A stretch of 64,000 bases of DNA from a virus (IMGVR_UViG_3300038450_000150); one strand, 5' to 3'; counted from the stretch's first letter, positions 10,336 through 58,475 are shown. Notes: generated from the letters alone by a model not told the origin. Numbers and translations are program-made.

Positions 10336-11088
10336 TTACTTCTTCCTAAAGATGTTTAGTACAAGATCAACAACACAGAACGCTATCGCTATTACCGAGA
10401 GCAATGTGCTCCATATAGGTGCAGAATCACCTTGTGCGCCTGTTGCTCCAGTAAGTCCTACTGGACCTTGAACTCCCTGAATGCCTTGGATGCCTTGTGC
10501 GCCTGTTAATCCAGTCGCTCCTGTTGCGCCTGTGTCACCCTTATCACCTTTGATACCTTGAATTCCCTGATCTCCTTTTTGTCCCTGTGAACCAACTGGA
10601 CCAACTGGGCCTTGTGGACCCCTTGCTCCAGTAGCACCAGTGGAACCAGTTGCACCAGTTTCACCAGTAGAACCTGTCGCACCCGTTGCTCCAGTGGAAC
10701 CAGTCGCTCCAGTATCTCCCTTGGGACCAGGCGTTAGTTGAATGTTTCCAATTTCAGTCTGGAGATTTGTAATCTGTGTTTGTAGGCTATCAAGCCTTGT
10801 TTGAATTACAGAATCACCATCTGTACACTTCTCGATATCCTCAACTTCAGATGTTAATGCAGCTAGTTGGGACTTCAACTGTAGGAGAAGTGTTTGGTCA
10901 CAGTTGTTTGTTAGTGCATTTATCTTAACATTCAGAGCGTTAATCTGATTCTGTAGATCAGTAATTTGCCCTGGAATGCCATTGTTGTTATTATTTCCAT
11001 CATCACACGCAAGAGCGTGTGGAACAACAAGAACCGACATTAAAAATAGGCATACTATGCCTATTAATCCTCTCTTTTTGATCATCAT
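10336..11088 (-). CDS. collagen-like repeat membrane protein (250 aa)
   Basis: Signal/TM N-terminus, heptad coiled coil, about 45 G-x-y triplets ([13 protein letters not shown]...[10 protein letters not shown]), C-terminal TM helix. Confidence 0.65.
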
Positions 11089-12737: not shown

Positions 12738-12770
12738 TTGATAAAAAATAGGTTTATGAAGTTATAAACA

Positions 12771-14681
12771 TTAGCCTAAATTAGTCCATTGCCTTGTATG
12801 GAACTCAACTTGTTTCATCTTATTCCAACTTGAGACAGGGACAAAGTATCCGACTATTCTGGTCATCCAGTCAAGTTCGTTTGAGCCACAAACTGGGCAA
12901 GTATTGTAGACACCCATCGAGTTGTGTCCTTTCTTACAGAGTGTGAATCCACGATTCAAGGCAAACTGCACGAGATCTGTGTTCTTGATTAGTCTGTCCT
13001 GGACTTTGAATCCATTGATCTCATCCATCGAGCCAAGGATATTGAGGTGCGCCATACTTCCACCAGTAGTTGTGTTCTGGAACTTGCCCTCAACCTCAAC
13101 TCTCTTACCCATAGGAATGTCATAACTTAGTGGGACAAACTGGCTGTTGTAGAACTGTTTTGTTGCTGTCTCAGGGAATTTGATTTTATCCTTTGCTGCT
13201 AGAAGTCCAGACGCACTTTCTGCTGGAACCTCTTCGATGTTGTACATTACGCCATCTTCGTGGGAGAACTGAACTGATAATTGCTTCATAAGGGATAGTA
13301 TTTTCAGACCTTGTGCCTGTCCTTCACCCTCTGTAATGGTTCCACCCATATACTCAATAGCATCTGCAAAGCCAACAAAGCCTATGGTGCTGAAGAAATT
13401 GGAATCAAGATTGAGTATTCCGTTCCTGAAGAATTCGTGGTACTTTACACGTCTTGCTCCTAGAATGTCTCTTCTGTGAACAAAGAGAAGCTGTCTAGCC
13501 TGACCAACACGATCAACTAGTAGTCTCTCGAACTCAGCCCAATTTCCCTTTGCCTCTAGTGCTATCCTTGGGAGATTGACCGTAACAACAGCGTGTGAAC
13601 CTAGAGTTAGGAAACTGCCAAAGGTGTTGTTGACCTTCATCTTCAACATATCCTCTATGTCGAGAGTTAGCTTGCAACACATAGATAATTTCTTCAAGTC
13701 TGTGTTCATATTTCTAAGAATGTTTAGGAAACAGAAGTCCTTGTTGAGTGTGAGGATCCTGTGATACTCTTCTGGATATTCCTTCTCCATTGAAGGATCA
13801 ATTACCAGAGTTGTTATCGGGAAACGATAAGGCAGATTCTGTAATTTCTTATCTGGACCAACCATACCCTTTGCAAGGAACTCTAGGAAGATCATCTGGT
13901 TCCTCATAATCTCGTCTATTAAATCTCCAATCTTGTAGTCTGAGTCTGGCCAGATATAATCTGCAAACATCGACCTCATAGTCTCTGGACTTAGGATACT
14001 GACGTTTGTGAATGGAGATTGACCTGAGAGGCGTTCCTTATCGGACACACCGTGAACTAGATTTTGCATATCGTTTAGTCTGGATTCATCTGGATAGTTG
14101 CCAACCATCTTTGTGAAGTAACTGTAGTTTACGAAGAAATCTGTGAGTGCTGTCGCTCCAGCAAAGCAATTTGCAGCAGCCTGGATTAGTCGAGCAGTTA
14201 GATTTGTGAAACTTGCTGGACGCTTTGGTGGTAGAGTTGGAACATCACTAAATTGAACTTGACCATAGAGTAAAGGAGTTGTTGAAAGCCCTATACAATA
14301 TGGGAGCTGGTAGAGAGTTGAGTTGTGGATGTAGAGTGCGCCATTGAATACATCACCGATTAACTCATCACCATTGTATTTCCTGCGGTTTGCATATCTC
14401 CTGTAGAGATAATAGCAACTAAGTTTTTCAATGGGATTGTTTACTTCGGTGATTTGATTCACAAAACTCTTCTTCTCTCCAGTATTGCCAAGATTGGCAT
14501 TGGGATTGATTGTAACAGCATCTACTGGTTGCGACCAGTAATCTCTCCTAAGTTTGAAAGGATTGATATTTCCCAAGCCATCCATTTTTATAAGGTCATA
14601 ATCAACATCTGCAAGATAGTCTGCAAATTCCTCATCAAAAGTTCCAAGTATATTTCTGAATTTCAGTTCATCACGATTCAT
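12771..14681 (-). CDS. nrdD: anaerobic ribonucleoside-triphosphate reductase (class III RNR)
   Basis: 636 aa. C-terminal Zn ribbon C...H...CPVCGS followed by the glycyl-radical motif RIVGYF. Confidence 0.85.
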   Translation of the reverse strand: MNRDELKFRNILGTFDEEFADYLADVDYDLIKMDGLGNINPFKLRRDYWSQPVDAVTINPNANLGNTGEKKSFVNQITEVNNPIEKLSCYYLYRRYANRRKYNGDELIGDVFNGALYIHNSTLYQLPYCIGLSTTPLLYGQVQFSDVPTLPPKRPASFTNLTARLIQAAANCFAGATALTDFFVNYSYFTKMVGNYPDESRLNDMQNLVHGVSDKERLSGQSPFTNVSILSPETMRSMFADYIWPDSDYKIGDLIDEIMRNQMIFLEFLAKGMVGPDKKLQNLPYRFPITTLVIDPSMEKEYPEEYHRILTLNKDFCFLNILRNMNTDLKKLSMCCKLTLDIEDMLKMKVNNTFGSFLTLGSHAVVTVNLPRIALEAKGNWAEFERLLVDRVGQARQLLFVHRRDILGARRVKYHEFFRNGILNLDSNFFSTIGFVGFADAIEYMGGTITEGEGQAQGLKILSLMKQLSVQFSHEDGVMYNIEEVPAESASGLLAAKDKIKFPETATKQFYNSQFVPLSYDIPMGKRVEVEGKFQNTTTGGSMAHLNILGSMDEINGFKVQDRLIKNTDLVQFALNRGFTLCKKGHNSMGVYNTCPVCGSNELDWMTRIVGYFVPVSSWNKMKQVEFHTRQWTNLG

Positions 14682-14804
14682 TTTTGGTCAACCAGTTTGT
14701 CTGCCGATAAGCATCGTAGCTATGGTACGAGAGCATATAAATATTATCAGGTCATTATCAAATGAAGAAAATTTATTATAAAAAAATTATGTGGGTGTTT
14801 ATAA

Positions 14805-14874
14805 TTCACCCACCTTTACTTTACTTCACTATACTAAACTCTACAAGACTTCACAACACACTACATTACTATAC
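14805..14874. repeat. G-free pentamer-periodic tract (NNNAC)x13 on the + strand, i.e. (GTNNN)n on the gene strand
   Basis: ttcac ccacc tttac tttac ttcac tatac taaac tctac aagac ttcac aacac actac attac tatac, with AC every 5 nt. Lies upstream of the nrdD leader. Confidence 0.6.
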
Positions 14875-14922
14875 TTCATTAAATTAATAACCATATATTA
14901 CATTTATAAATATTATCACCTA

Positions 14923-15390
14923 TTATATTCTTCCACCAAATTGCATACAAACAACACCGTTTGCACGTAATCCTTCTACGATTGTTGGAGAATCGTCAAA
15001 ATAAACATAAACACCTCTCTCACGAATAATCTTTAACTTTCTTTGGACAATATCATCCTGCCATTCTTTCCAAAGTCCTTTGTTTTTTAATTCTATATCT
15101 TGCCCAACTATCTCAAGTGAAAATTCTGGGAAATATTTGGCAACCCAACGTTTGGTGAGTTGAACCAATTTTTCATCCAAAAAATCCCTTGCGGTGATAA
15201 TAATTCCCTTATCTCCTTCGTGCATATATTCTTTCACGGAGAAAATTGGTTTTACTTGTCTATAAAAAAGTTCATATTCAAACTTTCTTTCATCTGGATT
15301 TGGATTCATATCAATTAAACGAAGTTTAACCGAATCTGTATCTCCAAGGCAACCGTCTAGGTCGAATCCGATAAGTTTTCCGCTATTCAA
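14923..15390 (-). CDS. HAD-superfamily phosphatase, 5'(3')-deoxyribonucleotidase-like
   Basis: N-terminal GFDLDGCLGD (HAD motif I, DxDG). 155 aa. Confidence 0.5.
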   Translation of the reverse strand: MNSGKLIGFDLDGCLGDTDSVKLRLIDMNPNPDERKFEYELFYRQVKPIFSVKEYMHEGDKGIIITARDFLDEKLVQLTKRWVAKYFPEFSLEIVGQDIELKNKGLWKEWQDDIVQRKLKIIRERGVYVYFDDSPTIVEGLRANGVVCMQFGGRI

Positions 15391-30595: not shown

Positions 30596-30961
30596 AGCGT
30601 TAGAACTTCCTAAGATTTTATCGAGTGAGTAGAGGAAGGCTAATGATGTCAGCCTAGACACACCATCTTCATCCATCGTCAAAACAGATATTATTGAAGT
30701 ATTCGAGAACTTTTTTGAACGAACATATACATTAAGATCGTCACTGCTGTCTCTTAAAAATCCATTTTCCTTTCCTATAATAAAATGACCATCTTCATAT
30801 TTAATAGTCATAAAGCCTGGAAAGGCATCTTTGATGGCTCTATCAATGTAGTCTTTTGGTTCTTCACCCTGTTTTAGGAAATAAACAACAGAACTTGGGA
30901 TACTCAAACCGTGACTACTTGAGGATGAACCGTGTGCTATTGGAACAAAAATTACAGGCAT
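30581..30961 (-). CDS. hypothetical protein (126 aa)
   Basis: ORF with poly-Ser near the N-terminus. Immediately preceded by the pentamer tract. Confidence 0.4.
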   Translation of the reverse strand: MPVIFVPIAHGSSSSSHGLSIPSSVVYFLKQGEEPKDYIDRAIKDAFPGFMTIKYEDGHFIIGKENGFLRDSSDDLNVYVRSKKFSNTSIISVLTMDEDGVSRLTSLAFLYSLDKILGSSNALLQE

Positions 30962-31045
30962 TTTACATCACTCTTTACTTTACATTACTTGACTTAACTG
31001 CACTAAACTCCAGTTCACTGCACTTTACTGCTCTACTTTACTTTA
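30961..31045. repeat. second G-poor pentamer-periodic (NNNAC)n tract
   Basis: tttac atcac ..tttac attac ttgac ttaac tgcac taaac ... ttcac tgcac tttac ... tttac. Fills the whole intergenic space from the start codon at 30961 to 10 nt before the stop of the next gene. Confidence 0.55.
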
Positions 31046-31055
31046 AAAAATGGGA

Positions 31056-32900
31056 TTAGACTGCTTTGGTAGCTGCCTCTTTCTTTCGAAGCATCTGAGC
31101 CAGCCAGACATTGAGTAGGTTGCCTTGGGCTTCTCCACCATTGCCACCTGAAACTAGGATATCAGGTGTGATAGTGATCTTGCCAGAGGCAATCTGCTCG
31201 AACACCTTTAGCATTGCAACGTTGTCCTGACCTAGGACACCCATCTGTGCAGCATATGCTTTAGCTGTACCTACACCTTCCTGTTCATTCTTGTAAGCTG
31301 TACCGTCTGCCTGAGCCTTAGTTGCATCACGAACACCAGCAGCTTCCATCCTTGCTGCATCTGCACGGTCTGCTGCAATATCGATTGACAGTTTAGCTGA
31401 GATAACGTCAGTCTGCTTGTCAGCCCTTGCCGTTTTCTCTGCTACAGCAATCCTCTGCTCCTGTGCAAGTGCTTCCTGCTGGTACTGTGCCTGTTGCTGG
31501 GCAGCTATTTCCTTCTTTGTCTGAGTTTCTAGTAGTGCCTTGTCAACATCAATGTAAGCAATTAGCAGCCCCTGAACCTCTGTGTGGTACTTCGAGAACT
31601 CTTCACGAGCCTTCTCAAGTGCCTGTTCCTGTAGTTCAGTTCGGCTGTGGACGAACTGCATTGCCTGTTTCTTGCCAGCTTCGTTACGGAAGGAGGAGTC
31701 GATCAGTGGGTGAGCAACCTGTTCAATCAGGTTCTGTACAGTACCGAACCTTGCAATCACGAAAGGTGCATTGGCTGGAGGTACACGGATGATGAGCCTG
31801 ACATCTACATCAAGCTGGAACCCATCCATTGAAGTTACACGAAGTTGGCTGAACTTGAAGAACTCTGTGATCTTCTGGCTCTGGGAAACGTCCTTTCCCT
31901 GAGCTCCAAGTACACGTGTCTCTGCTGGACCCTCAGTTGATGCCCAATCTATAGTGATAGCGGAAGTAGGTACTAACTCAGGCTTGTAGGCGATTTGGTT
32001 AAGGTTGTACTTTCCAGGTGTAACTGGCTCGGCCAGAATACCACGCTGGTTCTTGTCAGTGATTAGAAGAGACTCAACTGTCTCTGGAATTGGGGAATTG
32101 AGATCAGGTGTCTTGCTGATTTTTGGTGCTTCACCACTAGGCTGGACTTCCTTTCCAACACTGGAAATGATTACAGCAACGTAGCCTGGTGGGACAACAG
32201 CAACATCATAGAGAGTGACTTGGAATAGGTTAGTATTTATGTAGTAATCACCTGGCTGAAGTGTCTCAAGTTGTGGACCCCTGTAGCCACCAGCCTCAAT
32301 GAAGGCTTGGCTGTCTTGGAAGTGCTTGTGATCTGATGTGGGTGCTGGAGCAATTATGAAACCAGATGGCAGTGAATTGCCATCCATAGCAACAACTACA
32401 CCGACCCTCTCCTGTGGAACTTGTACTGCACCAACTGCTGTGACTTTGAATACAGCTAGGTTGATACGATAAACACCTGGGCGAAGTACACCAATCTGAG
32501 GACCCTTCTTTCCACCATTCTTGAGGAATGCCCCTGCATCTTGGTACGAATTACATTCAACCTCATCTGCAAGGATACGACCAGATGGAATGGATTGTCC
32601 GTCAATGGACTCAACTAGACCAATATTTCCCTGTGGAATCTCGGTCACTTCGACCTTCTTAATCTTCCAGATTATGGGGAAACGCCAGTAAAGTCCAGGC
32701 ATAAGGGTTTCAGCTTGAATACCGACCTCACCCTCAGTAGCAATGATTTTTCCCTGTGGTAATTTCTTGCCAAACATTTTCTTAACTAGGATACCGACCT
32801 CACCAGCTTTGATGAGAGCGAATCCTGGTAGCACGAAGAAAACTAAGCATATTAGTACGACAATGCCTAGAATCCCTAGTCCGATTAGATCTTCAAACAT
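31056..32900 (-). CDS. SPFH/flotillin-like (YqiK-type) membrane protein with internal repeats
   Basis: N-terminal TM. Duplicated about 90-aa segment (FQDSQAFIEAGGYRGPQLETLQPGDYYIN versus YQDAGAFLKNGGKKGPQIGVLRPGVYRIN). C-terminal Ala/Glu/Gln-rich coiled coil and ITITPDILVSGGNGG...LLNVWLAQML tail typical of the flotillin C-terminus. Confidence 0.65.
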   Translation of the reverse strand: MFEDLIGLGILGIVVLICLVFFVLPGFALIKAGEVGILVKKMFGKKLPQGKIIATEGEVGIQAETLMPGLYWRFPIIWKIKKVEVTEIPQGNIGLVESIDGQSIPSGRILADEVECNSYQDAGAFLKNGGKKGPQIGVLRPGVYRINLAVFKVTAVGAVQVPQERVGVVVAMDGNSLPSGFIIAPAPTSDHKHFQDSQAFIEAGGYRGPQLETLQPGDYYINTNLFQVTLYDVAVVPPGYVAVIISSVGKEVQPSGEAPKISKTPDLNSPIPETVESLLITDKNQRGILAEPVTPGKYNLNQIAYKPELVPTSAITIDWASTEGPAETRVLGAQGKDVSQSQKITEFFKFSQLRVTSMDGFQLDVDVRLIIRVPPANAPFVIARFGTVQNLIEQVAHPLIDSSFRNEAGKKQAMQFVHSRTELQEQALEKAREEFSKYHTEVQGLLIAYIDVDKALLETQTKKEIAAQQQAQYQQEALAQEQRIAVAEKTARADKQTDVISAKLSIDIAADRADAARMEAAGVRDATKAQADGTAYKNEQEGVGTAKAYAAQMGVLGQDNVAMLKVFEQIASGKITITPDILVSGGNGGEAQGNLLNVWLAQMLRKKEAATKAV

Positions 32901-32941: not shown

Positions 32942-32963
32942 TTTATAAATATTTGGAATTTGG
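32942..32963 (-). promoter_or_regulatory. BRE/TATA-like promoter motif upstream of the SPFH gene
   Basis: tttataaatatttggaatttgg. Confidence 0.5.
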
Positions 32964-33045
32964 TGGGGTTACAAGGAGTCGAACCCTGACCCTTGGTTTT
33001 CCCCTATTTCTGGGGACCAAGATGCTACCGCTACACCATAACCCC
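32961..33045 (-). tRNA. tRNA with an apparent 13-20 nt insertion in the anticodon region (intron-like), isotype undetermined
   Basis: Minus-strand sequence GGGGTTA...GGTTCGACTCC...TAACCCCACCA has acceptor and T-arm. The segment CTTGG-TCCCCAGAAATAGGGGAAAA-CCAAG is too long for a 7-nt anticodon loop. Confidence 0.5.
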
Positions 33046-33093: not shown

Positions 33094-33522
33094 TTAATCC
33101 CCACCGCCACCGCCATCTCCCCCACCACCGCCATCTCCTCCTCCTGCATCTCCACCACCACCAGCATCAGAACCACCACCACTGCCACCAGAGTCGATTC
33201 CACCACCTGAACCACCATTTGATGCACTGCCTGAGTCACCTGGACTTGGACCCTCTTCGTCATCTCCATTTGAGGATGTTGATGGATTTGAACTACTTGA
33301 ACTGCCACCACCGTCATAGAAGAAATATGGCATCCAAGGAACCCATCCAGTGTCAGTCGAGTTGTCTTTGCCTGATGTCGGTTTTGGATATGACCTTGAT
33401 TGCTGGTTAATCATAGCTGTTTTTATATTGGAAAGTAAAATAACTGTCAATAACAGTATGACAAACACCATAATTGCTGAAAGGGCTAAAGTTAGCTTTG
33501 TTCCCGTTCTCATATCGATCAA
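33094..33522 (-). CDS. membrane-anchored Gly/Asp/Ser-rich low-complexity protein (142 aa)
   Basis: N-terminal TM helix. C-terminal GSGGGIDSGGSGGGSDAGGGGDAGGGDGGGGGD. Promoter at 33543, 20 nt upstream. Confidence 0.45.
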   Translation of the reverse strand: MIDMRTGTKLTLALSAIMVFVILLLTVILLSNIKTAMINQQSRSYPKPTSGKDNSTDTGWVPWMPYFFYDGGGSSSSSNPSTSSNGDDEEGPSPGDSGSASNGGSGGGIDSGGSGGGSDAGGGGDAGGGDGGGGGDGGGGGD

Positions 33523-34440: not shown

Positions 34441-34520
34441 TGGCGGGTTCGGAGGGATTTGAACCCCCGACAAGTGGATTAAAAGTCCACTGCGCTAAGA
34501 CCTGACTGCGCCACGAACCC
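34441..34520 (-). tRNA. tRNA-Lys (anticodon TTT), CCA encoded
   Basis: GGGTTCG...GTGGA-CTTTTAA-TCCAC...GGGGGTTCAAATCCCTC-CGAACCC-G-CCA. Own TATA at 34543. Confidence 0.75.
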
Positions 34521-34559
34521 AGCACTGAATAGTATGACTGAATTTATAAATATTGTGAA

Positions 34560-34637
34560 TGGTGGACTCGAAGGGATTTGAACCCCTGACCCTTGGCTTA
34601 GAAGGCCAATGCTCTATCCAAGCTGTGCTACGAGTCC
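34560..34637 (-). tRNA. tRNA-Arg (anticodon TCT), CCA encoded
   Basis: GGACTCG...GGCCTTCTAAGCC...GGGGTTCAAATCCC...CGAGTCC-A-CCA. Confidence 0.75.
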
Positions 34638-34639
34638 AA

Positions 34640-34719
34640 TGGTGAGTCTGAGGGGATTTGAACCCCTGAATGGAGGATTAAGGGTCCTCTGCGCTAGACC
34701 TTGCTACGCCACAGACTCA
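34640..34719 (-). tRNA. tRNA-Lys (anticodon CTT), CCA encoded
   Basis: GAGTCTG...GAGGACCCTTAATCCTC...GGGGTTCAAATCCCC...CAGACTC-A-CCA. TATA at 34739, about 20 nt upstream. Confidence 0.75.
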
Positions 34720-37021: not shown

Positions 37022-37867
37022 TTATTCATCATCGTCTTGAGGATTAGAACGTGGTCTACCTCTCGGTCTTGTTGGTGGTAATGGTTGTGGCTTACTACGA
37101 ACAAATGCACCTATTGAAAATGCCATTGACATAACACAAAACCCAATAATTGTATAGAATTCCCATTCTGGTGCTATTTCTCCTTGGGGACCCTGAATGC
37201 CTTGAGGACCTGTTGCGCCTGTGTCACCCTTATCACCCTTTGCACCAGTTGCACCAGTTAATCCCCTATCACCCTGTATTCCTTGTATTCCTTGTAATCC
37301 CTGTATGCCTTGTGTTCCGTTAAATCCTCTTAATCCTTGAGGACCAACTGGACCAATAAGTTTTGCTTTTATAGTTGAGTTCAATTTATCAAACCAGTCT
37401 GGTGGTGGAATGAAATTTGTGATTGTAAATGATTTTGCAATTGTTACTTTACTTCCATCCATTCCTTCAACAATAATTTTTATTGTGTGCAGACCAAGAT
37501 TAGAGTAGGGTGTTTGATTAGGTACTAAAATAAATGTGTCCCAAGTTACTAAAATATTTGCTCCAGCAGTACTGTATAATGGTTCAGATTTAATAATCTC
37601 AGAAAAATCATCATAATATACATATAAATATGAAGAAACTGGACAAGTTGTGTGATCAGCTTCTGGATTAACTTCAATATGTATATTTATTTTTGTATTA
37701 ACATCACCAGATTCTGGTGATATTATTACAGATAAATTATTTATTGGGACATCTGCTTTTATTAATTTAGGTGTAGAGATTACAAAACATATTAAAAAAA
37801 TCATTAAGATAAATTTGTGTTTGAACATTTTATAATTTCTCACCACAGTGTTTGCAAAACTGAGCAT
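37022..37867 (-). CDS. collagen-like membrane protein with C-terminal AT-hook-like tail
   Basis: Signal peptide, globular domain, G-x-y repeats (GPVGPQGLRGFNGTQGIQGLQG...GDTGATGPQGIQGPQG), TM helix, then tail RSKPQPLPPTRPRGRPRSNPQDDDE. Confidence 0.6.
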   Translation of the reverse strand: MLSFANTVVRNYKMFKHKFILMIFLICFVISTPKLIKADVPINNLSVIISPESGDVNTKINIHIEVNPEADHTTCPVSSYLYVYYDDFSEIIKSEPLYSTAGANILVTWDTFILVPNQTPYSNLGLHTIKIIVEGMDGSKVTIAKSFTITNFIPPPDWFDKLNSTIKAKLIGPVGPQGLRGFNGTQGIQGLQGIQGIQGDRGLTGATGAKGDKGDTGATGPQGIQGPQGEIAPEWEFYTIIGFCVMSMAFSIGAFVRSKPQPLPPTRPRGRPRSNPQDDDE

Positions 37868-38158: not shown

Positions 38159-38235
38159 TGGTGGCGAAGAGCAGACTTGAACTGCTGATGCCCTGATTAT
38201 CAGTCAGGTGGACTACCAAGCTGTCCTACTTCGCC
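38159..38235 (-). tRNA. tRNA-Ile (anticodon GAT), CCA encoded
   Basis: GGCGAAG...CCTGA-CTGATAA-TCAGG...CAGCAGTTCAAGTCTGCTG? T-arm...CTTCGCC-A-CCA. Confidence 0.7.
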
Positions 38236-38240
38236 AAGAA

Positions 38241-38321
38241 TGGTAGAGAGGATGGGATTCGAACCCACATAAAGGCAAGGATTATGAGTCCTCCGAGATA
38301 ACCAGGTTCCTCTACCTCTCT
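38241..38321 (-). tRNA. tRNA with anticodon CAT (Met, or Ile2 if lysidine/agmatidine-modified); 81 nt, 8-nt variable loop
   Basis: AGAGAGG...GAGGA-CTCATAA-TCCTT...GTGGGTTCGAATCCCAT-CCTCTCT-A-CCA. Only 5 nt from tRNA-Ile. TATA at 38343-38350, 21 nt upstream. Confidence 0.6.
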
Positions 38322-38342: not shown

Positions 38343-38350
38343 TTTATAAA
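38343..38350 (-). promoter_or_regulatory. TATA box of the tRNA(CAT)-tRNA-Ile transcription unit
   Basis: gtgtgtttataaagattt. TATA is 21 nt upstream of the mature 5' end. Confidence 0.5.
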
Positions 38351-38353
38351 GAT

Positions 38354-39811
38354 TTATTCTCTGACGATGTAAAGGTTGTTTAATGACCTTGTTAGAGCTA
38401 CAAACTTGCAGTTATCTTCCTCTTTCAACTGCTGGGGATTGCCCTGCTTTACAGCATATGGGTGTGGCATAAGATCATAGCGGAGTATGTAGACGTTCTC
38501 AGACTCAAGTCCCTTAGCCCTATGAACACTGCTGAAAACTATGCCCTCAATATTGTCACGGAAAATGAATTTCACTTTTGATGTAAGATCGGTTATGGTT
38601 TTGCTCTCATCGGCTATAGCAAAGATTGTGTCAACCCTGTCACTGAGGGTGAGTATTGATGCTTCCTTTTTCTGGATCTTCAACTTCTCGGTCTGCTTCT
38701 GCTGGTACTCTTTCAGACCGATTAGGAAAGTGCTGAGATCGGTAGCACCACACATCTTTACGACACGGTTGATTAGGTTCTCAAGCTGATCGCCTATGCT
38801 CTTGCCAACAATTATGACCTTCTTGCCGTTTCGAATAAGTTCGAAGGCTGGTTCTACGAGAGGGGCATTTGTTCGGCAGAGAACCATATCCTTCGGCTGG
38901 ACTTTTTTCATAAATGTGGGATAGTCTATTTCCTCAACTTTTCCCTGCTTGGCATTTGGACCACATTCGTGTGTGATGTTTGGGAAGGTCTTGTTTACAA
39001 AGGCAACGACAGACTTTGGGTTTCTGTAACTGATGCTGAGTGGAAATTCGACAGCATCAAGCATATTTCCCAAGTAATCCATAGCATTGATTCCAGCTCC
39101 ACGGAAACCGTATATGGCTTGGTTTCTGTCACCGATTACTATTGTGCATCCGTTGGGTTTCCTGATTTTGAGGATCATTTGAACCTGAGTCTCGTTCAAG
39201 TCCTGTGCCTCATCAACAAGGACATAATCGTATTTTCTCATTGGGATATCGAGAACGACAGGAAGCCAGATCATATCATCATAATCGATTGTTTGTGTGT
39301 CTTTTTTAGATCGTTGTATAACATAATTAACGGCCTTGAACACTGTTTTTTCATTACCATTTAATTTAATGTTATAGAAATCACACATTTCAATCATAGA
39401 ATCTTCATCTTCTGAATCTGTTAATGTGTTTTTCACATATTGAACAACTTTAGCAATTGTCTGCCAGAGCATTTTATTGACAACAGTGTCCTCTAGGATT
39501 GAGTATGTTTTTTGATTGTCCATAATGAAATTACCATATACATTACGAAGTTCACGATTGCCAAGAGAATGAAGTGTTTTTGCTTCTCCACCAGGCATAT
39601 TTGCTAGTTTTTCTTTTGCCTCAAGTTGATTCTTTTTATTAAAAACAAGATATATCCAGCTTTTATTTTTTGGTATATAATTTTTAATAAACTCTTGAAT
39701 TGTTCGAGTTTTACCAGAGCCAGCAGTTGCACTCACTATGATGTTCTTATCTCCCTTTCTGCCAGCCTCAAAGATTGCCTTCTGGTATGAGGACGGGACG
39801 AATGTTGACAT
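38354..39811 (-). CDS. UvrD/PcrA/Rep-family SF1 DNA helicase
   Basis: Walker A ATAGSGKTR, motif II VLVDEAQDLNETQ, motif III VIGDRNQAIYGFRGA. Confidence 0.75.
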   Translation of the reverse strand: MSTFVPSSYQKAIFEAGRKGDKNIIVSATAGSGKTRTIQEFIKNYIPKNKSWIYLVFNKKNQLEAKEKLANMPGGEAKTLHSLGNRELRNVYGNFIMDNQKTYSILEDTVVNKMLWQTIAKVVQYVKNTLTDSEDEDSMIEMCDFYNIKLNGNEKTVFKAVNYVIQRSKKDTQTIDYDDMIWLPVVLDIPMRKYDYVLVDEAQDLNETQVQMILKIRKPNGCTIVIGDRNQAIYGFRGAGINAMDYLGNMLDAVEFPLSISYRNPKSVVAFVNKTFPNITHECGPNAKQGKVEEIDYPTFMKKVQPKDMVLCRTNAPLVEPAFELIRNGKKVIIVGKSIGDQLENLINRVVKMCGATDLSTFLIGLKEYQQKQTEKLKIQKKEASILTLSDRVDTIFAIADESKTITDLTSKVKFIFRDNIEGIVFSSVHRAKGLESENVYILRYDLMPHPYAVKQGNPQQLKEEDNCKFVALTRSLNNLYIVRE

Positions 39812-40313: not shown

Positions 40314-40389
40314 TGGAGCCCCAGGCAGGACTCGGACCTGCGACCATCAACTTACAAGGTTGACGCACTACCAACTATGCTACAGGGGC
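40314..40389 (-). tRNA. tRNA-Thr (anticodon TGT), CCA encoded
   Basis: GCCCCTG...TCAAC-CTTGTAA-GTTGA...GGTCCGAGTCC...CTGGGGC-T-CCA. One T-T mismatch in the acceptor stem. TATA variant at 40416. Confidence 0.65.
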
Positions 40390-40933: not shown

Positions 40934-42730
40934 TCACCTAATAGCTTCCTTAAACCACTTCGGGAAGAATCCTATATTCTGGTTGAATAAGTCTGAGAAC
41001 TTCCCATCAATTATGAAAGTCTCACCCCAATCGTCAACACTTCTACAGACTCTACCATAAGTCTGGATTAGGAGCATTGCGGTTGTCCAGTTGTACCAGG
41101 ATTGATCCTTTTCGACCCTCTTCTTAATCTGAGGATCACCGAGAGATGGATAGGGTACTTTAACTAGGACTTGCCATCTAGCCAAATCATCTTTTAGGTC
41201 GATGCCCATTTTCATACTCGGTGTTGTCATAATGCAAGGTGCTTTTGCTTGGAAGAATCTCTCGAAAGTATCTTCACGCCTCTCATCTGTGTCAATAAAG
41301 TTTCCTCTCTCATCTCTAAGAGAAACATTGGTCATCATATACTGCTTGTATTTTGAATTAGCCATAATATATCTTGCAATTTCGTTATTGTGAGTGTGTA
41401 TTACACCTTTGTGCTGCAAACGAGTTGGAATGATATCGTTGTCAATTATTCTAAGCATATTCGGTAGGAACTGATCCATTTCTTTGAAAATCGCTCTTCC
41501 AGCAAATTTTTGGTAGAGTGGACGATGTTCGACTGGGAATGTTGAGTTGCCTATTCTGAAAAACTTAACCTCTTCTTCTATGCCTAAGTATTTCTGTAAT
41601 TTTTCTTTGTCAAGTATTGTGGCCGATATAAGAATGTGTTTGTCAGTGTGCTTGAAAAGCTGGTCAGAATATTTATTAATTGTAACTGGTTTGAAAGTGG
41701 CAGATGTTTTGTCTTTTAAGACAACCCAGTTATCAATATCATCTTCTAGACTATCTAGCAACTCTGTGATTCTATTTGTTATATTTTCAACTGTTTTACG
41801 ACTCTTCAGTTCTTGTACACGATTTGAACTATCACCTATATCCCTTTGGATTGAGGCGAAAGTTCCATACTTTTCTGAGATCCCTTTAAGTTCACCCTGG
41901 ATATTCTGCAACCATTTTTCCCAATCTTCCATTTTTGTGTATTCTGGTATTATTGGAAATGGCATATCTTTAAAATACATCCAAATACCATTAAATGTTC
42001 TCGAAGAAATTAAAACTTCAATATAGGTCATTAAAGTATTTTCGATTGTGTGTGCCTCATCAAAGATTCCTAAAAATCTTTTATTGAAGCTGTGTGCGTG
42101 ATTTTGTTCGTGAAGGTAATAGGAATAGTTGTGGATGGTAAGAGGTGAATGGATTGCCTTGTCCTTGGCTTGCCAGTAGGCACAGAGTGGATAAGAACAA
42201 TTGCTCCAATCGAACTTAACTCCAAACTTGTCACGATCTGCTCTCGGTGACGCATTATCATCTTCAAAATTTTCTGGGTCAATTTCAGCACCCATCTCCA
42301 TATCGGTTAGTGCAGACTCACGTTTTACTTGGTTTGCCTTGTGGGGGCATTTGTAACCATTAATCAGGGTACACGGTGCTCTGTCTGCATAGAGTGTGTT
42401 CCCTATTCTCTCAGCCCAAAACTCTGGTTCCATATCTCCTGCTGTGAGAGAGCAGGGATAATTGCCCCTACCTTTGATTAGTGCTATGTCTGGAAAATCA
42501 CGTAGATACTGTCCCTGTAGGTAGATGTCGTTTACAACAAAGTGTGTAAGGTTGCCATATTCCTGATAGACATACTTAGCGATTGCATAGGCTACAGGTG
42601 ACTTACCAAAGCCTGTAGGTGCTTCTAGGAAGATGTAATTGTAGGGATCAAGGTTGGCTTCTATAAGACTTAGGATTTCCTTCTGGTATGGACGGAATTC
42701 CTTGAATGGGAAACAGGCTTCAATTGCCAA
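40934..42730 (-). CDS. XPD/Rad3-like SF2 (DEAH) helicase with Fe-S cluster cysteines
   Basis: Walker A EAPTGFGKS, DEAH box FDEAHTIEN, Cys cluster between them (CSLTAG...CTLINGYKCPH...CSYPLC), C-terminal VKVPYPSLGDP. Confidence 0.65.
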   Translation of the reverse strand: MAIEACFPFKEFRPYQKEILSLIEANLDPYNYIFLEAPTGFGKSPVAYAIAKYVYQEYGNLTHFVVNDIYLQGQYLRDFPDIALIKGRGNYPCSLTAGDMEPEFWAERIGNTLYADRAPCTLINGYKCPHKANQVKRESALTDMEMGAEIDPENFEDDNASPRADRDKFGVKFDWSNCSYPLCAYWQAKDKAIHSPLTIHNYSYYLHEQNHAHSFNKRFLGIFDEAHTIENTLMTYIEVLISSRTFNGIWMYFKDMPFPIIPEYTKMEDWEKWLQNIQGELKGISEKYGTFASIQRDIGDSSNRVQELKSRKTVENITNRITELLDSLEDDIDNWVVLKDKTSATFKPVTINKYSDQLFKHTDKHILISATILDKEKLQKYLGIEEEVKFFRIGNSTFPVEHRPLYQKFAGRAIFKEMDQFLPNMLRIIDNDIIPTRLQHKGVIHTHNNEIARYIMANSKYKQYMMTNVSLRDERGNFIDTDERREDTFERFFQAKAPCIMTTPSMKMGIDLKDDLARWQVLVKVPYPSLGDPQIKKRVEKDQSWYNWTTAMLLIQTYGRVCRSVDDWGETFIIDGKFSDLFNQNIGFFPKWFKEAIR

Positions 42731-43730
42731 CGTCTATACCACCGAGTTGATATTTTCTTACGTGATTACGAATTGAAACCTCTGTCACGCCACAGGTTGT
42801 TGCTATAACCTTCTGGGAGATGTTAAGTTCCATCTTCTTGGATGCCAGATAAATTGCACAAGCTGCTACACAGAGTGGACTTGAGCCACTTGTGATTTTT
42901 AAGTCCTCTGCCTCTCTGCAAATCTTTAGGGCTAACATTTCAAATTCACCAGATAGGTTTAACTTAGAGGTGAACTGGGAAATAAAGATTGCAGGATCCC
43001 TGCGAGTTGGCTTGATCTTCATTGATTCTACCATAAGGCGATAGCAACGAGCAATATCCTTCTTGTCGATGCCTGTGACCTCTTCAATATTCTCCATTGT
43101 TGTTGGAATGCCATTCTCTCTGAGGCTGTAGTACATACAGGCAACTAGGATTTGCTGGATTGAACGTCCTCTAATGAGGTTTATGGCCACCGATTTTGTA
43201 AATATATCAAAGATATCGTCATCTATTGCATCTGGTATGCTGAGTCTGTATTTGTAGGTTGTATAAAGTGACCTTGCAGAGGATAGTGTTCTGGTTAGAG
43301 ATGCCTTATCACCTGTTGCCCTATTGTTCATTCTTGAAAGACGAAGATATTCTATCTTCTTTTCTCCTGTAAGTTTCTTGTTTTGACCATCTAAATTTGA
43401 CCAAGGAGCAATCCTTGTATGGCTTGAAGAGCCATTAACGACACCTGGATTTGTGATTGGCGTAGCCCTGTCAAGTTGCTGTGGCTCACCATCAAAGTTT
43501 CGCCATTCCTTGTCTCTGGAAATTACTTGTTCCTCAAGAACAACCAACCCACAGTTTTTGCAAACAACCTCACCAGTAACATTATCGTGATAGAAGTCAC
43601 GACTGCCACAAATTGGGCAGTTTAATGGAGCATCTTGTGGGGCTTCGTGGGACGGGTCATTAGACATAAACATCACTCCTATTGTACCTACATTTATAAA
43701 TATTATGAGATTTTTATCCAAACCACTCAT
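42720..43730 (-). CDS. tfb: transcription factor B (TFB/TFIIB homolog)
   Basis: N-terminal Zn ribbon CPICGS...CKNCG followed by two cyclin-like repeats. 336 aa. Confidence 0.8.
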   Translation of the reverse strand: MSGLDKNLIIFINVGTIGVMFMSNDPSHEAPQDAPLNCPICGSRDFYHDNVTGEVVCKNCGLVVLEEQVISRDKEWRNFDGEPQQLDRATPITNPGVVNGSSSHTRIAPWSNLDGQNKKLTGEKKIEYLRLSRMNNRATGDKASLTRTLSSARSLYTTYKYRLSIPDAIDDDIFDIFTKSVAINLIRGRSIQQILVACMYYSLRENGIPTTMENIEEVTGIDKKDIARCYRLMVESMKIKPTRRDPAIFISQFTSKLNLSGEFEMLALKICREAEDLKITSGSSPLCVAACAIYLASKKMELNISQKVIATTCGVTEVSIRNHVRKYQLGGIDVGN

Positions 43731-46050
43731 TTAGGTTTGCGAAACCTTCAACATTTTCCCAACCTATTCCAACTGCCTCTAGGATCCTCTCTAATGGGGA
43801 ACGCACGGTTCTTTCAATTACCCAATCATAATCTATTTCTATACCCTTTCCGACTAGGCTTTGCTTGTCTAGATATGAACACCAATTTGTTTGTTCCCAA
43901 GAACCGTTGTTAATCCTTTTTACTCTAAAGTACTTTACAAGATCACCTGGAACGATTTCTTCTTTAAGGAATTTATTTGACCAAATTGCACCGTCATAAT
44001 ATTCACCACCAGCATCCTGTTTAAGGAAGTTCTTTGAGAGGTTGACGGGGATAACTATCTGGTCGATATCGTATGTTCCACCTCTGATATCAGCCATCAA
44101 CTTACCCAACTTTGCAACAAACTCCTGTGCTTGTCCGTGCAGAACCATCTCGATACACTCTTTTTGCAGTTTGCGTGTTACCTCAGATGTGTTTCCACGG
44201 ATGTAGTCGAAACCCTTGATGAGGATGTAGTCGCAGGATCGACCATCTTCTCTAATAATACGCTGTGCATATCTCTTCTTAGCACCTGTCTCTTTGCCCT
44301 TTTTCTTAATGAAAAGGCTTTCAGAGGCATACCTATCCTCTTTGATTTTGAATTTGGCTGTCTCGGCTATGCCATTTTCCTCTGCCCACTTCAGTAACTC
44401 ATCGTTCATTGCAGCTTCGAGTTCTGGTACACGTTCCATTGGGGCATCGATGAATATGGAATCTGTATCACCGTAGATGACCTTGAAACCCATAGATTCT
44501 GCTCTCTTCTGGAGTCTGTGTAAACCATCTCCAGCAGTTTTGAGAACGAAGTCTGCCTTTGCCTTTGAGAAGATACGACTGCCCTTGAATGCAAAGTATC
44601 CCCAAGCACCTGAGAGGAAAGCCTTAACCTTATCTCGTGTGTCCTTTACAACCTTGTACTGTGCAGAACCAGGCTCATATTTCAGAAGTTCCTTGTCCCA
44701 CACTTCACGTTCACTTAATAAATCATTGATAACTGCTGGACCCAACTTGCCCCAGATATCTGGAGAAGTTTCCATAGGATAACTTCTGAGGATACTTGGG
44801 TAGTATCTGCTCATATCCAGCACGACTAAGTTTGGATAAATCTTTGGCGGTGGAGTGAACACTACACCACCATACTCTAAGTCCTCTTCACTCTGCTCCT
44901 CTGGAGAGGATGGTAGAACCATTCCAAGTCCGTGTGCTTTTCTAAGCCAGAAGCAGTCGTGACGCTTAATGTGTTCGAGTGTGTAGTTTATGTCGTGAAG
45001 CCCTACAAAGTTCTTCTCTCCCCAGAAGGACTGTATGAAGCGGTATTCCTTCCACTCACCAGTGTTGACATCCTTGAAGCCTCTGTCGAGCTTGACACAG
45101 TAGTCAACGTCCATCTTATTGTATAGAATGAACTCATCTCTCTTTGTAGGGTCAAGGTATGTATCGATTCTGAAGAATTCGGACACCATATCCTCTTGTT
45201 TGATTATCCCTTCCCTGATAACAACTTCCTTTAGTCTGTTACCTAGGTTTGGTCTAGTCTTTGTGTAGGCATTATGTAGGTCGAAGATTTCTGTTCCAGC
45301 CCAATCAACCTTGAGATTGAACTGTTTCTTAGCCCAAGCATCAAAGTACTCGGTATCAAATCTGATATTCCAGCCTGTAACTATATCTGGCTTGAGGTAG
45401 TCAAAATACTTCTGGATATAATCAATTAGAGCAACGTAAGAAGCAACGTGAACAACTTTCCAGTTCTCCTCTCTTTGCTCAACCTGTGTGGCCAAGAACC
45501 GATCATCAACAACAAACGTGATATATTGCTCACTTTTGTTGTCCCAGAAGGTGACACAGATAATTGGCTGAGTTGGGTTGTTCTTGTTTGGGAATCTGAT
45601 GCCCTGAGCCTTTGTCTCAATGTCCATATAGACAACTAGAGGCTGGAGAACAACATTGGCTGGTTTTATGGTGTCAAATGGAATGATTGAAGAGTTCCCA
45701 TCATAGTAGAATGAGGATTTGACACCTGTGTCAATCAGCATACGTTCTACAAATTCAATATCTGCTTCCCAATGCTTTGAGAAATTGTCTCTGTGGTTAC
45801 TTACTTCAAGTGGATTTTGAACAACTATTTTTACTAACTTTTCACCGTCTTTTGAAATGAACCCAGGCTCAATGCGTTTAATCCAAGGTGCATTCTCTGG
45901 AATTGATTCACCATCGTGGACGTACATATAAGGGTCGAACTTGGAGATTCTGAACATTCTCTTCTCTCCAGTGTTCGAGCGACAGTAAATATTAATGAAG
46001 CCTGTCTCTCCATCGTAATGACCTTTAACGTACTGCCAGACAGTGGACAT
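43714..46050 (-). CDS. polB: family B DNA polymerase
   Basis: Exo I YMDIETK, motif A LDMSRYYPS, motif C VIYGDTDSIFI. 778 aa. Confidence 0.9.
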   Translation of the reverse strand: MSTVWQYVKGHYDGETGFINIYCRSNTGEKRMFRISKFDPYMYVHDGESIPENAPWIKRIEPGFISKDGEKLVKIVVQNPLEVSNHRDNFSKHWEADIEFVERMLIDTGVKSSFYYDGNSSIIPFDTIKPANVVLQPLVVYMDIETKAQGIRFPNKNNPTQPIICVTFWDNKSEQYITFVVDDRFLATQVEQREENWKVVHVASYVALIDYIQKYFDYLKPDIVTGWNIRFDTEYFDAWAKKQFNLKVDWAGTEIFDLHNAYTKTRPNLGNRLKEVVIREGIIKQEDMVSEFFRIDTYLDPTKRDEFILYNKMDVDYCVKLDRGFKDVNTGEWKEYRFIQSFWGEKNFVGLHDINYTLEHIKRHDCFWLRKAHGLGMVLPSSPEEQSEEDLEYGGVVFTPPPKIYPNLVVLDMSRYYPSILRSYPMETSPDIWGKLGPAVINDLLSEREVWDKELLKYEPGSAQYKVVKDTRDKVKAFLSGAWGYFAFKGSRIFSKAKADFVLKTAGDGLHRLQKRAESMGFKVIYGDTDSIFIDAPMERVPELEAAMNDELLKWAEENGIAETAKFKIKEDRYASESLFIKKKGKETGAKKRYAQRIIREDGRSCDYILIKGFDYIRGNTSEVTRKLQKECIEMVLHGQAQEFVAKLGKLMADIRGGTYDIDQIVIPVNLSKNFLKQDAGGEYYDGAIWSNKFLKEEIVPGDLVKYFRVKRINNGSWEQTNWCSYLDKQSLVGKGIEIDYDWVIERTVRSPLERILEAVGIGWENVEGFANLNEWFG

Positions 46051-47194: not shown

Positions 47195-47752
47195 TTATCC
47201 TCCAATAGTAAACAACCCAATATCATTGAAATTTATCTTTGCATATTTACCAAACAATTCAATGGCTTTACTATCATAGGCTCTAGCTGCATCTTCTTCT
47301 GTATTAAATGTGCCTAAATATATTATTGTTCCATCTTTCACTATACGACTATACCATTTATTATTGTTTTTACTCACACCTTTATATTTGCTTAAACACA
47401 TTTTTCTATTTCGTGTTTTCTGCTTTCTACTATTAAATTTATTTTGCTGGTTTGAAACTATTCTTAAATTACACTTACGATTATCAAGACCATCACCATT
47501 AATATGATCGATTTGCTCATTTGAATTTACATTTAAAATTAATCTATGTATTGAATTTCCTTTGTTGCCAACTCTTCCAGATTCTGCATACCAGATACCA
47601 TCTCTTTTATTGGCATACCAAGTATGATTTTTTACATTATCATAATCTTCTGAATCTATAATAGCAGATTTATTTTGAGTTAATGAAATTATACAAATTT
47701 TACTTAATTTATCTTCAATTATTTTATTATGTTTTCTGCTACCAAATTTCAT
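47195..47752 (-). CDS. HNH homing endonuclease with AP2 DNA-binding domain
   Basis: HNH HINGDGLDNRKCNLRIVSNQQN. AP2 SKYKGVSKNNNKWYSRIVKDGTIIYLGTFNTEEDAARAYDSKAIELFGKYAKINF. Extremely AT-rich codons. Confidence 0.8.
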   Translation of the reverse strand: MKFGSRKHNKIIEDKLSKICIISLTQNKSAIIDSEDYDNVKNHTWYANKRDGIWYAESGRVGNKGNSIHRLILNVNSNEQIDHINGDGLDNRKCNLRIVSNQQNKFNSRKQKTRNRKMCLSKYKGVSKNNNKWYSRIVKDGTIIYLGTFNTEEDAARAYDSKAIELFGKYAKINFNDIGLFTIGG

Positions 47753-51238: not shown

Positions 51239-52222
51239 TTGAGTAATCAAAGACTTACTGAGAAATATAGACCCCAAAAATGGGATGATGTAGTCGGTCA
51301 GGACAAGATAATCAAGTCCATTAAGAACACCGTTGACAGGGCTAAAATGATGAAAGGTGAGGGTATTACTCCACATTTCTTATTTGTTGGTCCTCCAGGT
51401 TGTGGTAAAACAACAGTTGCAGAGATTGTAGGTAGGGAACTTGGGTTTGAGACTATAGAGTTTAATGCCTCTGATGATAGAACACTTGTTTTTGTTAGAG
51501 AGGAAATCAAGAAACTAGCTGCATTTGCTGGTGTTCACGTAATCATTCTGGACGAGTTTGACGAAATGATCAAGCCAGCTCAGATGGCTATGAAGAGGAT
51601 TATGGAAACAACTGATTCAATTTTCATACTCTTGGCAAACCACGATTGGAAGATTGAAGATGCTATCAAGAGTCGATGTGCAAAGTTTACCTTTGAGAGA
51701 ATCAAAGATGATATTATTGAGAAGAAGATTGTATCCATAATTATGGCAGAGGGAATCAAGTTCTCACCTACAGAAGAAGTCAAACAGGGTCTGAAGGACT
51801 TGGTAAAGAATGCCGATGGTGATCTTAGGAAGGCTATAAACGACTTGGAAAGTATCACAGACGCAAGCAAATACATTACAAATGATTCCGTTGCTTTACT
51901 CCAGAGGCCAATCGGACTTGGTTTGGTTGCTCTAACTTATGCTTTACAGGGTGACTTTGATAGTGCAAAGGAGAACATTGAGAAAACATATGTTGAGGGA
52001 AAATATGATCCAAGAAAGACTATTCACGAACTTTACGAAGCTATTCCAAAACTACAGCTAGATCAGGAAATTAAAATCAGAATGTATGAGAAGTTAGCCA
52101 GAACAGATGCTGATATGAAATATGGTGGGGATCCTGTAATCCACCTGATTGGCTTCGTAGCTTTTGTTTGGCTACTACCACACCTTAGTAAGTGTCCAGT
52201 TCTAAGTACAAGTGGGGTTTAA
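51239..52222 (+). CDS. rfcS: replication factor C small subunit (clamp loader)
   Basis: RFC box II EKYRPQKWDDVVGQ, Walker A GPPGCGKTT, DEFDEM, SRC motif KSRCAKF. TTG start. Confidence 0.85.
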   Translation: MSNQRLTEKYRPQKWDDVVGQDKIIKSIKNTVDRAKMMKGEGITPHFLFVGPPGCGKTTVAEIVGRELGFETIEFNASDDRTLVFVREEIKKLAAFAGVHVIILDEFDEMIKPAQMAMKRIMETTDSIFILLANHDWKIEDAIKSRCAKFTFERIKDDIIEKKIVSIIMAEGIKFSPTEEVKQGLKDLVKNADGDLRKAINDLESITDASKYITNDSVALLQRPIGLGLVALTYALQGDFDSAKENIEKTYVEGKYDPRKTIHELYEAIPKLQLDQEIKIRMYEKLARTDADMKYGGDPVIHLIGFVAFVWLLPHLSKCPVLSTSGV

Positions 52223-57923: not shown

Positions 57924-58475
57924 TCACACCTGTTGTTGTGTCTCTTTTGGCTTGTTTTTACTACCTTTTGGTCTGCCACCGCCTCTCTTTTTCTGAACTG
58001 GAGATACTACTTGTTCTTGTTCCTGTGGCTGTTCTTGTTCCTGTTCCTCTGGTTGTGTCTGTTTCTCTGGTGGTGTTTGATGAGTACTCACGAATATTGG
58101 CTTTTTTCCTTTTCTCTTCAAGGCACTTGGAATCTTGAGCTTTTCTTGTGGTTTTTGCATTGATTGAAACTGTGGTTTCTTGTGTCTGTCTGGCTTACTT
58201 AACCTAACATATGCGTCCCAATATGTCCAAGTTGAGACAATTGTAATTAGCACAAATAAGATGAATGTTCCAATAACTGTAGCATCTCTATTTTGATAAA
58301 TGAAATCAAGACCAGATATTGGTTCCATCTTATCTAAGGCAAAGTAAACCATAACAAAGAATGTCCAACTAAAGAACACTGCAAATAGGTTTATCAGGAA
58401 TAGTATCCCTTGGCTACCAACTAGGCTTCTAAGTGCCTTAGAAAACCAAGTTGTGAACTTTTCTCTTTGCATCAT
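57924..58475 (-). CDS. polytopic membrane protein with basic C-terminal tail containing an AT-hook-like GRPKG motif
   Basis: Three N-terminal TM helices. Tail ...PEEQEQEQPQEQEQVVSPVQKKRGGGRPKGSKNKPK. Confidence 0.45.
   Translation of the reverse strand: MMQREKFTTWFSKALRSLVGSQGILFLINLFAVFFSWTFFVMVYFALDKMEPISGLDFIYQNRDATVIGTFILFVLITIVSTWTYWDAYVRLSKPDRHKKPQFQSMQKPQEKLKIPSALKRKGKKPIFVSTHQTPPEKQTQPEEQEQEQPQEQEQVVSPVQKKRGGGRPKGSKNKPKETQQQV

Follow-up and report, generated by a model that had tools for sequence, protein, structure and literature searches.

VIPR systems were described in two 2026 preprints (bioRxiv 10.64898/2026.04.26.720920 and 10.64898/2026.04.26.720927). Their guide RNA, the vrRNA, is about 100 nt long and comprises 9–16 pentamers in which GGY is fixed and NN is hypervariable, followed by a structured 3′ tail (both preprints); minor consensus forms are NNNGG, YNNNG and NNNNG (bioRxiv 10.64898/2026.04.26.720920). 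The protein, Vipr, is a minimal RAMP of ∼20 kDa that binds one per repeat, clamping the fixed bases and presenting NN, which pairs with double-stranded DNA with one base skipped per unit (both preprints). The loci described so far are compact, with the guide RNAs flanking vipr (both preprints).

Here, we report a tract with a strict 5-nt period in a 64,000-nt stretch of viral DNA (IMGVR_UViG_3300038450_000150), referred to throughout as the window. Our preferred reading, to which we assign a probability of roughly 0.7, is that the tract is a vrRNA-like guide RNA gene, in an orphan or dispersed arrangement, in an archaeal virus. A preliminary description had recognised no known element class in it, which was fair for the literature before 2026 and has been overtaken by the vrRNAs of the 2026 preprints. 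Since the RNA features are present and no adjacent vipr was found in 80 kb, we file the locus as a vrRNA-like gene, not as a complete VIPR system.

The tract and its predicted transcription unit

The tract (array 1) occupies 14815–14874, where the plus strand reads TTTAC TTTAC TTCAC TATAC TAAAC TCTAC AAGAC TTCAC AACAC ACTAC ATTAC TATAC and the minus strand reads GTATA GTAAT GTAGT GTGTT GTGAA GTCTT GTAGA GTTTA GTATA GTGAA GTAAA GTAAA. On the plus strand AC starts at 14818, 14823 and so on to 14873, an exact 5-nt period repeated 12 times (14818–14874), and the next pentamer, TTCAT, ends the series; the preliminary description had the period right and counted 13 repeats. Its description of the tract as free of G needs a similar adjustment. 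One G, at 14847, is found in the 145 nt from 14798 to 14942, and the longest G-free run of the window is the 95 nt from 14848 to 14942. In the minus-strand register A/U-G-U-N-N, G-U is present in all 12 units, NN is variable in units 1–10, and the final two units are both GUAAA.

To score periodicity, AC or GT was counted at 10 successive positions in steps of 5 nt. The tract scored 10/10, against maxima of 4–6 in 100 first-order Markov simulations of the window. One other comparable site exists in the window (30952–31048, score 9/10), which is also intergenic and on the same strand. A simple pentanucleotide microsatellite was rejected, in agreement with the preliminary description, because nine of the 12 units are distinct and TRF detected only 4.4 copies of CTTTA at 82%. 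Rfam returned seven tRNAs and no other family for the window at the gathering threshold, and a best E-value of 0.9 in a permissive scan of 14600–15000.

Almost all genes in the region are on the minus strand, and array 1 is intergenic and in the same sense as transcription. It lies between the stop codon (14923–14925) of a 155-aa ORF that is HAD/polynucleotide-kinase-phosphatase-like (PHROG 415, E = 2e-10) and the ATG (14681) of nrdD. The position upstream of nrdD given in the preliminary description is confirmed, with 133 nt between tract and ATG, as is the identity of the gene as a class III RNR (Pfam NRDD; tblastn). An ERCC4 nuclease gene is found 1.1 kb upstream of array 1, and nothing links this gene to the array. 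The features are as follows:

14903..14914, minus strand: promoter motif AATATTTATAAA, archaeal BRE/TATA-like, exact match
14875..14902, minus strand: spacer of 28 nt between promoter motif and array 1
14815..14874, minus strand: array 1, 12 tandem GUNNN pentamers, register A/U-G-U-N-N
14791..14814, minus strand: 3′ tail, a G and then the hairpin GUGGGUG, 9-nt loop, CACCCAC, from folding
14780..14786, minus strand: U7 run (oligo-T), from the sequence
14734..14745, minus strand: separate promoter-like motif AATATTTATATG for nrdD, from the sequence
30974..31041, minus strand: array 2, with 11 in-phase pentamers at 30974–31028 (one with CU for GU) and two out-of-phase units at 31032–31041
42720–43730 (minus strand), 43714–46050, 40934–42730, 38354–39811 and 51239–52222: genes of the TFIIB/TFB homologue, DNA polymerase, helicases and ATPase described below

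The gene content of the window bears on how the promoter motif is interpreted. A TFIIB/TFB homologue is encoded at 42720–43730 (minus strand; Pfam TFIIB 1.7e-26, zinc ribbon 5e-13), with PDB matches to human TFIIB (1e-33) and Pyrococcus TFB (4e-26), and its matches in the phage collection are archaeal viruses only. Also encoded are a family B DNA polymerase, XPD-like and UvrD-like helicases and an RFC-like ATPase. From this gene set, we read the element as a large archaeal virus and AATATTTATAAA as an archaeal BRE/TATA promoter. Three independent assemblies, each of 197.2 kb and of which the window is a circular permutation, indicate that the 197.2-kb genome is complete.

With one mismatch allowed, AATATTTATAAA has 37 sites in the window where 1.1 would be expected. 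Of these, 32 are on the gene strand, and examples are 34543–34554, 38343–38354 and 14903–14914. Measured to the mature 5′ ends, the motif precedes five tRNA genes by 21–27 nt; it lies ∼30–45 nt ahead of many start codons and 28 nt upstream of the first repeat of array 1. It is probably the BRE/TATA promoter of this virus, possibly read by the virus's own TFB. Judged by the motif-to-tRNA spacing, array 1 transcription is predicted to start at ∼14877–14881, a few nucleotides ahead of the first repeat.

At the other end of the array, the hairpin has 7 bp (−11.3 kcal/mol, z = −2.6) and is followed by AUAA and then U7. Oligo-T acts as an archaeal terminator, and here U7 alone is the likely transcription stop of the array 1 RNA. 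A simple bacterial terminator scan did not call this hairpin, owing to its 9-nt loop and to a U-run that begins 4 nt past the stem. The promoter motif 28 nt upstream, the 7-bp hairpin and U7 together point to array 1 being a separate RNA gene of ∼100 nt with its own promoter. The preliminary description had offered an unusual 5′ leader of nrdD as one explanation. We rejected an nrdD leader or attenuator, given that the array has its own promoter and stop, that nrdD has its own promoter-like motif (14745–14734) downstream of the array 1 RNA gene, and that a relative with an 86%-identical nrdD has no array upstream of it and carries the nrdD motif as AATATTTATAAG.

Four independent assemblies of this virus show no difference across the whole intergenic region (100% identity). 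Searches further afield with blastn against phage collections gave no close relatives, and nrdD peptide words had no match in IMG/VR. The relative with 86% nrdD identity (L165/L166) instead has a different 10-unit AGUNN array just after nrdD, with its own TATA motif and, in order at the 3′ end, AGUAAAG, a hairpin (GUAGGG-N6-CCCUAC) and U5. The site of that array (L165 2602–2651) corresponds to window 12738–12770, where there is only a 33-nt gap. Conversely, alignment of the array 1 site (window 14875–14935 with L165 470–500) shows the window's cassette inserted within the upstream gene's terminator hairpin. The cassette comprises promoter, spacer and array, spans ∼125 nt and is flanked by a ∼16-nt duplication (GGTGGnnGAATATAA). 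This duplication of the terminator arm hints at an insertion mechanism, and because of it we consider the array 1 hairpin to be a borrowed terminator and not a tail conserved among vrRNAs. No arrays were present in the DNA examined from relatives with 74% and 63% identity. Since array sites differ between relatives of 86% nrdD identity, the arrays behave as discrete cassettes with fast turnover, as expected for arms-race guides.

Several other features of this virus were observed. Seven tRNA genes (Trp, Lys ×2, Arg, Ile, Met and Thr), all on the minus strand, are located at 32961–33045, 34441–34718, 38159–38321 and 40314–40389, and several of them are preceded by a promoter motif of their own. 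The minus strand also encodes, at 10336–11088 and 37022–37867, two collagen-like proteins (G-X-Y repeats) that carry hydrophobic segments at the C terminus, and a 142-aa ORF (33094–33522, minus strand) has an extreme Gly/Asp/Ser-rich tail. A 185-aa ORF (47195–47752, minus strand) combines an HNH_3 with an AP2 domain, as is typical of homing-endonuclease-like genes; among the fetched loci its relatives are found only in the array-bearing L085 and L086, ∼2 kb from the arrays. Positions 58010–58079, inside a 183-aa ORF (57924–58475), form an A-free 70-nt stretch of TGTTCC-type repeats. Past the high end of the window (L127, 12283–22277) there is a cluster of ∼10 glycosyltransferase, methyltransferase, PIG-L and WbqC-like genes adjoining a 758-aa cellulase-family (GH5) protein (window 58596–60872); the cluster looks like a virus-encoded module for glycan synthesis or modification.

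Array 2 and similar arrays in other viral contigs

Array 2 lies 16 kb from array 1 in the 197-kb genome and fills the gap between the stop codon of an SPFH-domain gene (31056–31058) and the ATG (30961) of a 126-aa ORF, with a 3-nt slip separating its in-phase from its out-of-phase units. No TATA motif, hairpin, tail or stable fold was found for array 2, which may be co-transcribed with the SPFH-domain gene, started from a weak T6A3 box, or decaying. The 126-aa ORF has no Pfam or PHROGs match, and a single-sequence AlphaFold model of it, considered as a hidden RAMP, was unusable (pLDDT 46.6). Both arrays end in GUAAAGUAAAG, which may be a constant part of these RNAs. G-U is preceded by A in 74% of the units of the two arrays and by U in 26%, never by G. 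An nhmmer profile built from the arrays of other loci detected arrays 1 and 2 with E = 8e-7 each and also one relative's array, and found nothing further in ∼135 kb of this virus and its relatives.

The refuting conditions set in the preliminary description did not overturn the finding, as similar tracts recur in the same genome, in one relative and in many viral contigs. At least 120 loci matched (GTNNN)9GT in IMG/VR. Pure pentanucleotide microsatellites such as (GTAAA)n are frequent among them, and many other loci have degenerate arrays; most of these arrays lie outside ORFs, and most are on the same strand as the flanking genes. Clustering of the neighbouring ORFs revealed one dominant family of ∼200 aa (40 loci among the matches listed). 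The profile of this family matches PDB entry 36pp, ‘SUSP1 Vipr protein’, over its full length (E = 3.7e-40), with weak matches to Cas7-11 and Csm5, and it also matches Felixounavirus-type coliphages. Of the 87 degenerate-array loci among the matches listed, 50 have Vipr; its distance from the arrays has a median of 40 nt and never exceeds 1,278 nt.

A second scan of IMG/VR, for arrays ending in GUAAAGUAAAG, gave 10 loci with Vipr within 1.3 kb of the arrays (E = 1e-19 to 1e-58). Two of these loci, L152 (IMGVR_UViG_3300033143_003502) and L164 (IMGVR_UViG_3300033153_006784), share the A-G-U-N-N register of the window, in arrays that follow directly after a 187-aa Vipr. These arrays have A before G-U in 100% of units, variable NN, blocks of GUAAAGUAAAG and a closing hairpin with a T-run; unlike arrays 1 and 2, they form one continuous tract of ∼870 nt directly 3′ of the Vipr gene. 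No relationship between the L152/L164 virus and the window's virus was found. The L164 tract (2018–2890), preceded by the Vipr gene at 1451–2017, has more than 170 AGUNN units and may be the ‘staggered/overlapping’ array type of the preprint.

Arrays of this kind also occur alone. Approximately 11 loci with ample flanks have no Vipr, and six loci (L007, L024, L042, L074, L109 and L112) consist of a 17–21-unit array with a strong terminator and no Vipr. The array of this group occupies the site of a Vipr and array in the related L043 and L059, with three flanking gene families shared; we take the group to be natural orphan vrRNA loci. Vipr-linked and orphan arrays alike commonly have a hairpin straight after the last repeat. 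Such a hairpin follows array 1 and the arrays of L165, L007, L133, L141 and L163, and none follows array 2. A tRNA-like T-arm motif (GGTTCGAnTCC in a hairpin) is present in the 3′ tails of the Vipr-linked arrays of L041 (697–745), L043 (8799–8850), L056, L059 and L097, which suggests possible processing or stabilisation by tRNA enzymes.

Set against the published definition, array 1 has 12 pentamers and array 2 has 11 in phase, within the range of 9–16, each with a fixed G and pyrimidine and variable NN. The canonical GGY/NN (YNNGG) consensus is absent from both, as the base before G-U is never G. Because GUNNN is equivalent to UNNNG, the arrays match the YNNNG variant, and the A/U-G-U register agrees with this form and with the AGUNN arrays that adjoin Vipr in L152 and L164. 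Having A or U instead of G as the first fixed base would require a different G1 pocket in any cognate protein. As for accessory vap genes, profiles of the gene families c2–c6, found alongside Vipr in the viral loci, had no match in the window.

Searches for a partner protein and for targets

The search for vipr covered the window and a total of 16 kb of flanks, 80 of 197 kb, which is all of JAFMOA010002524.1 except positions 26,182–143,965 (∼117 kb, 59% of the genome). Within this scope, no match came from six-frame hmmsearch --max with the family HMMs, from hhalign, from a 210-sequence profile or from 210 single phmmer searches. In the inspected DNA, a regular expression for the C-terminal glycine-loop motif found nothing, and a direct search with the AGU-type Vipr was negative. 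The AGU-type Vipr of L152 has 13 database homologues, none of them on a 197-kb contig. Any recognisable vipr would therefore be at least 23 kb from array 1 and ∼40 kb from array 2, unlike the described loci. A metagenome scan for the promoter and array pattern, in a collection that lacks this virus's contig, returned seven unrelated low-complexity loci.

Targets were predicted with the published xNN rule (1-nt skip, usually in codon register) as exact matches in large collections. Neither array gave a self-target above shuffled controls in ∼100 kb of the same virus. The 10 variable units of array 1 had no exact match in IMG/VR, and units 2–10 had one in-frame match, in a nuclease-like ORF of a 224-kb viral contig. 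The nine variable units of array 2 matched 10 IMG/VR contigs, nine in codon register. These in-register matches (30974–31018 against L170–L179) fall on the conserved peptide KAEGFAYQK of Phage_tail_L in nine diverged contigs, with 18/18 bases matched while the wobble bases vary between contigs. With the unit order reversed as a control, array 2 had no match in IMG/VR; the L165 array had three independent, chance-like matches. Against 596 Gb of prokaryotic genomes, the nine units of array 2 gave 11 scattered, unrelated matches, and array 1 and the L165 array had nothing above controls in the Tail_L phage contigs. The tail module of the matched phages is lambda-type, with an NlpC/P60 gpK, and these phages are present in Tara ocean data. 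Overall, neither array gave a convincing target. As the Phage_tail_L sequences belong to bacteriophages and the array to an archaeal virus, and as a random 9-unit pattern would produce such an in-frame family clump with p ∼0.05–0.3 (a rough estimate), their match to array 2 is probably a coincidence.

Proposed mechanism, rival readings and known systems

The anatomy of array 1, its promoter spacing and hairpin, the recurrence of such arrays by vipr elsewhere, and the gain and loss of cassettes lead us to the vrRNA-class reading. Under it, the virus-type archaeal TATA-like promoter would start a minus-strand RNA just ahead of the first repeat, and this RNA of ∼100 nt would comprise twelve GUNNN pentamers, the G-rich 7-bp hairpin and the U7 stop. 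One small RAMP (Vipr) subunit would bind per pentamer, with the fixed bases A/U-G-U flipped out and clamped and the two variable bases presented. The row of NN would then pair with double-stranded DNA, skipping one target base per unit, and the resulting gapped R-loop or triplex would block transcription of a competing mobile element. The partner Vipr would be encoded in the remaining 117 kb of the genome or supplied in trans. That the array 1 RNA is made, that a Vipr-like protein binds it, and that it has a target are all inferred.

The missing vipr gene is open to other explanations. A virus without a Vipr of its own might carry solo vrRNA genes that act in trans, either arming the Vipr of a host, provirus or co-infecting virus with this virus's guides or sponging a rival's Vipr, an idea that is tentative and that we regard as unlikely. 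Put as a rival to the main reading, the RNA of such a virus would be a decoy that soaks up a rival's subunits (∼12 per RNA) or a hijacker that loads a host or provirus Vipr with its guides. The sensitive searches of 80 of 197 kb that found no Vipr fit this rival, as do orphan arrays such as the L007 type, set against the Vipr and array of L043 and L059. We nevertheless consider it unlikely: vipr may sit in the remaining 59% of the genome, no decoy has been described, and the variable positions are guide-like, not a repeated optimal binding site. The arrays could also be non-functional, as a decaying pentanucleotide satellite born by slippage or the remnant of a dead VIPR locus. Pure pentanucleotide microsatellites are common in viral contigs, and array 2, which slips out of phase, has one CU unit and lacks both a promoter motif and a hairpin, would suit decay; array 1 keeps G-U in 12/12 units while nine different units occur, has an intact promoter at tRNA-like spacing, belongs to a region unchanged across four assemblies, and has a different, equally regular counterpart in a relative, all of which makes loss of function improbable.

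A different partner for the RNA would be another ring- or filament-forming RNA-binding protein, TRAP-like, that regulates nrdD or the 126-aa ORF. A 5-nt period with 2–3 fixed bases is the signature of TRAP sites too, and array 2 runs right up to the ATG of the 126-aa ORF. This reading is quite improbable, as the fixed bases are G-U and not (G/U)AG, array 1 is a separate transcription unit beside an nrdD with its own promoter, the relative's nrdD lacks the array, and arrays of this type accompany Vipr in 50 loci. A TRAP-type attenuator was rejected, since UAG is irregular in the tract and the array is not part of the nrdD transcription unit. An element acting as DNA, a protein-binding or structural array phased by half helical turns at an origin, partition or packaging site, would also fit the extreme strand asymmetry and the strict period. 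We think this very improbable, given that two copies sit in unrelated intergenic gaps and always in the sense of transcription, that array 1 lies between a promoter and a stop signal, and that arrays are gained or lost between close relatives; to our knowledge, no DNA-binding array has a 5-bp unit. The protein-binding array of the preliminary description thus survives in part: one protein subunit per pentamer is best supported, with binding to the RNA transcript and not to half-turn-phased DNA.

If the vrRNA-like reading holds, it would extend the VIPR class to a 197-kb archaeal virus with an A/U-G-U repeat code, and to dispersed single-guide cassettes that have their own promoters and are gained or lost between close relatives. 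A plain 5-nt periodicity scan finds such guides without a protein anchor. Should the genome truly have no vipr, vrRNAs could act or interfere in trans, a new layer of virus–virus conflict would be indicated, and protein-first searches would miss such systems. Solo trans-acting vrRNAs, if real, would represent the first case of a ‘guide-only’ or anti-VIPR strategy and would parallel the orphan CRISPR mini-arrays that viruses carry.

The arrays can be compared with known systems. TRAP sites in Bacillus trp leaders are 11 (G/U)AG triplets with 2–3-nt spacers. They share with the arrays a ∼5-nt period, a short fixed motif, free spacers, one subunit per repeat and a hairpin with a U-run nearby, but differ in their fixed bases; moreover, in this archaeal virus no antiterminator alternative is evident and the array is outside the leader of the downstream gene. 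In class 1 CRISPR systems, crRNA on the Cas7 backbone is likewise bound periodically by a RAMP subunit, with bases flipped out at a fixed interval. Its spacers are bounded by repeats and its unit is 6 nt, of which 5 bases pair; our arrays have a 5-nt unit with 2 pairing bases and neither a CRISPR repeat nor cas genes.

The vrRNAs of VIPR systems differ from our arrays in the fixed triplet (G-G-Y there, A/U-G-U here), in the tail (a pseudoknot there, a simple hairpin borrowed from a neighbour's terminator here), in the distance to vipr or vap (a median of 40 nt elsewhere, none found within at least 23 kb here) and in arrangement, the two arrays here being dispersed 16 kb apart in a 197-kb genome. 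They are alike in their tandem pentamers with a fixed G and pyrimidine and two hypervariable bases, in a length of ∼100 nt (predicted here), in being encoded by viruses, archaeal viruses included, and in the quick turnover of arrays. The SUSP1 vrRNA studied by cryo-EM has 12 units, as does array 1.
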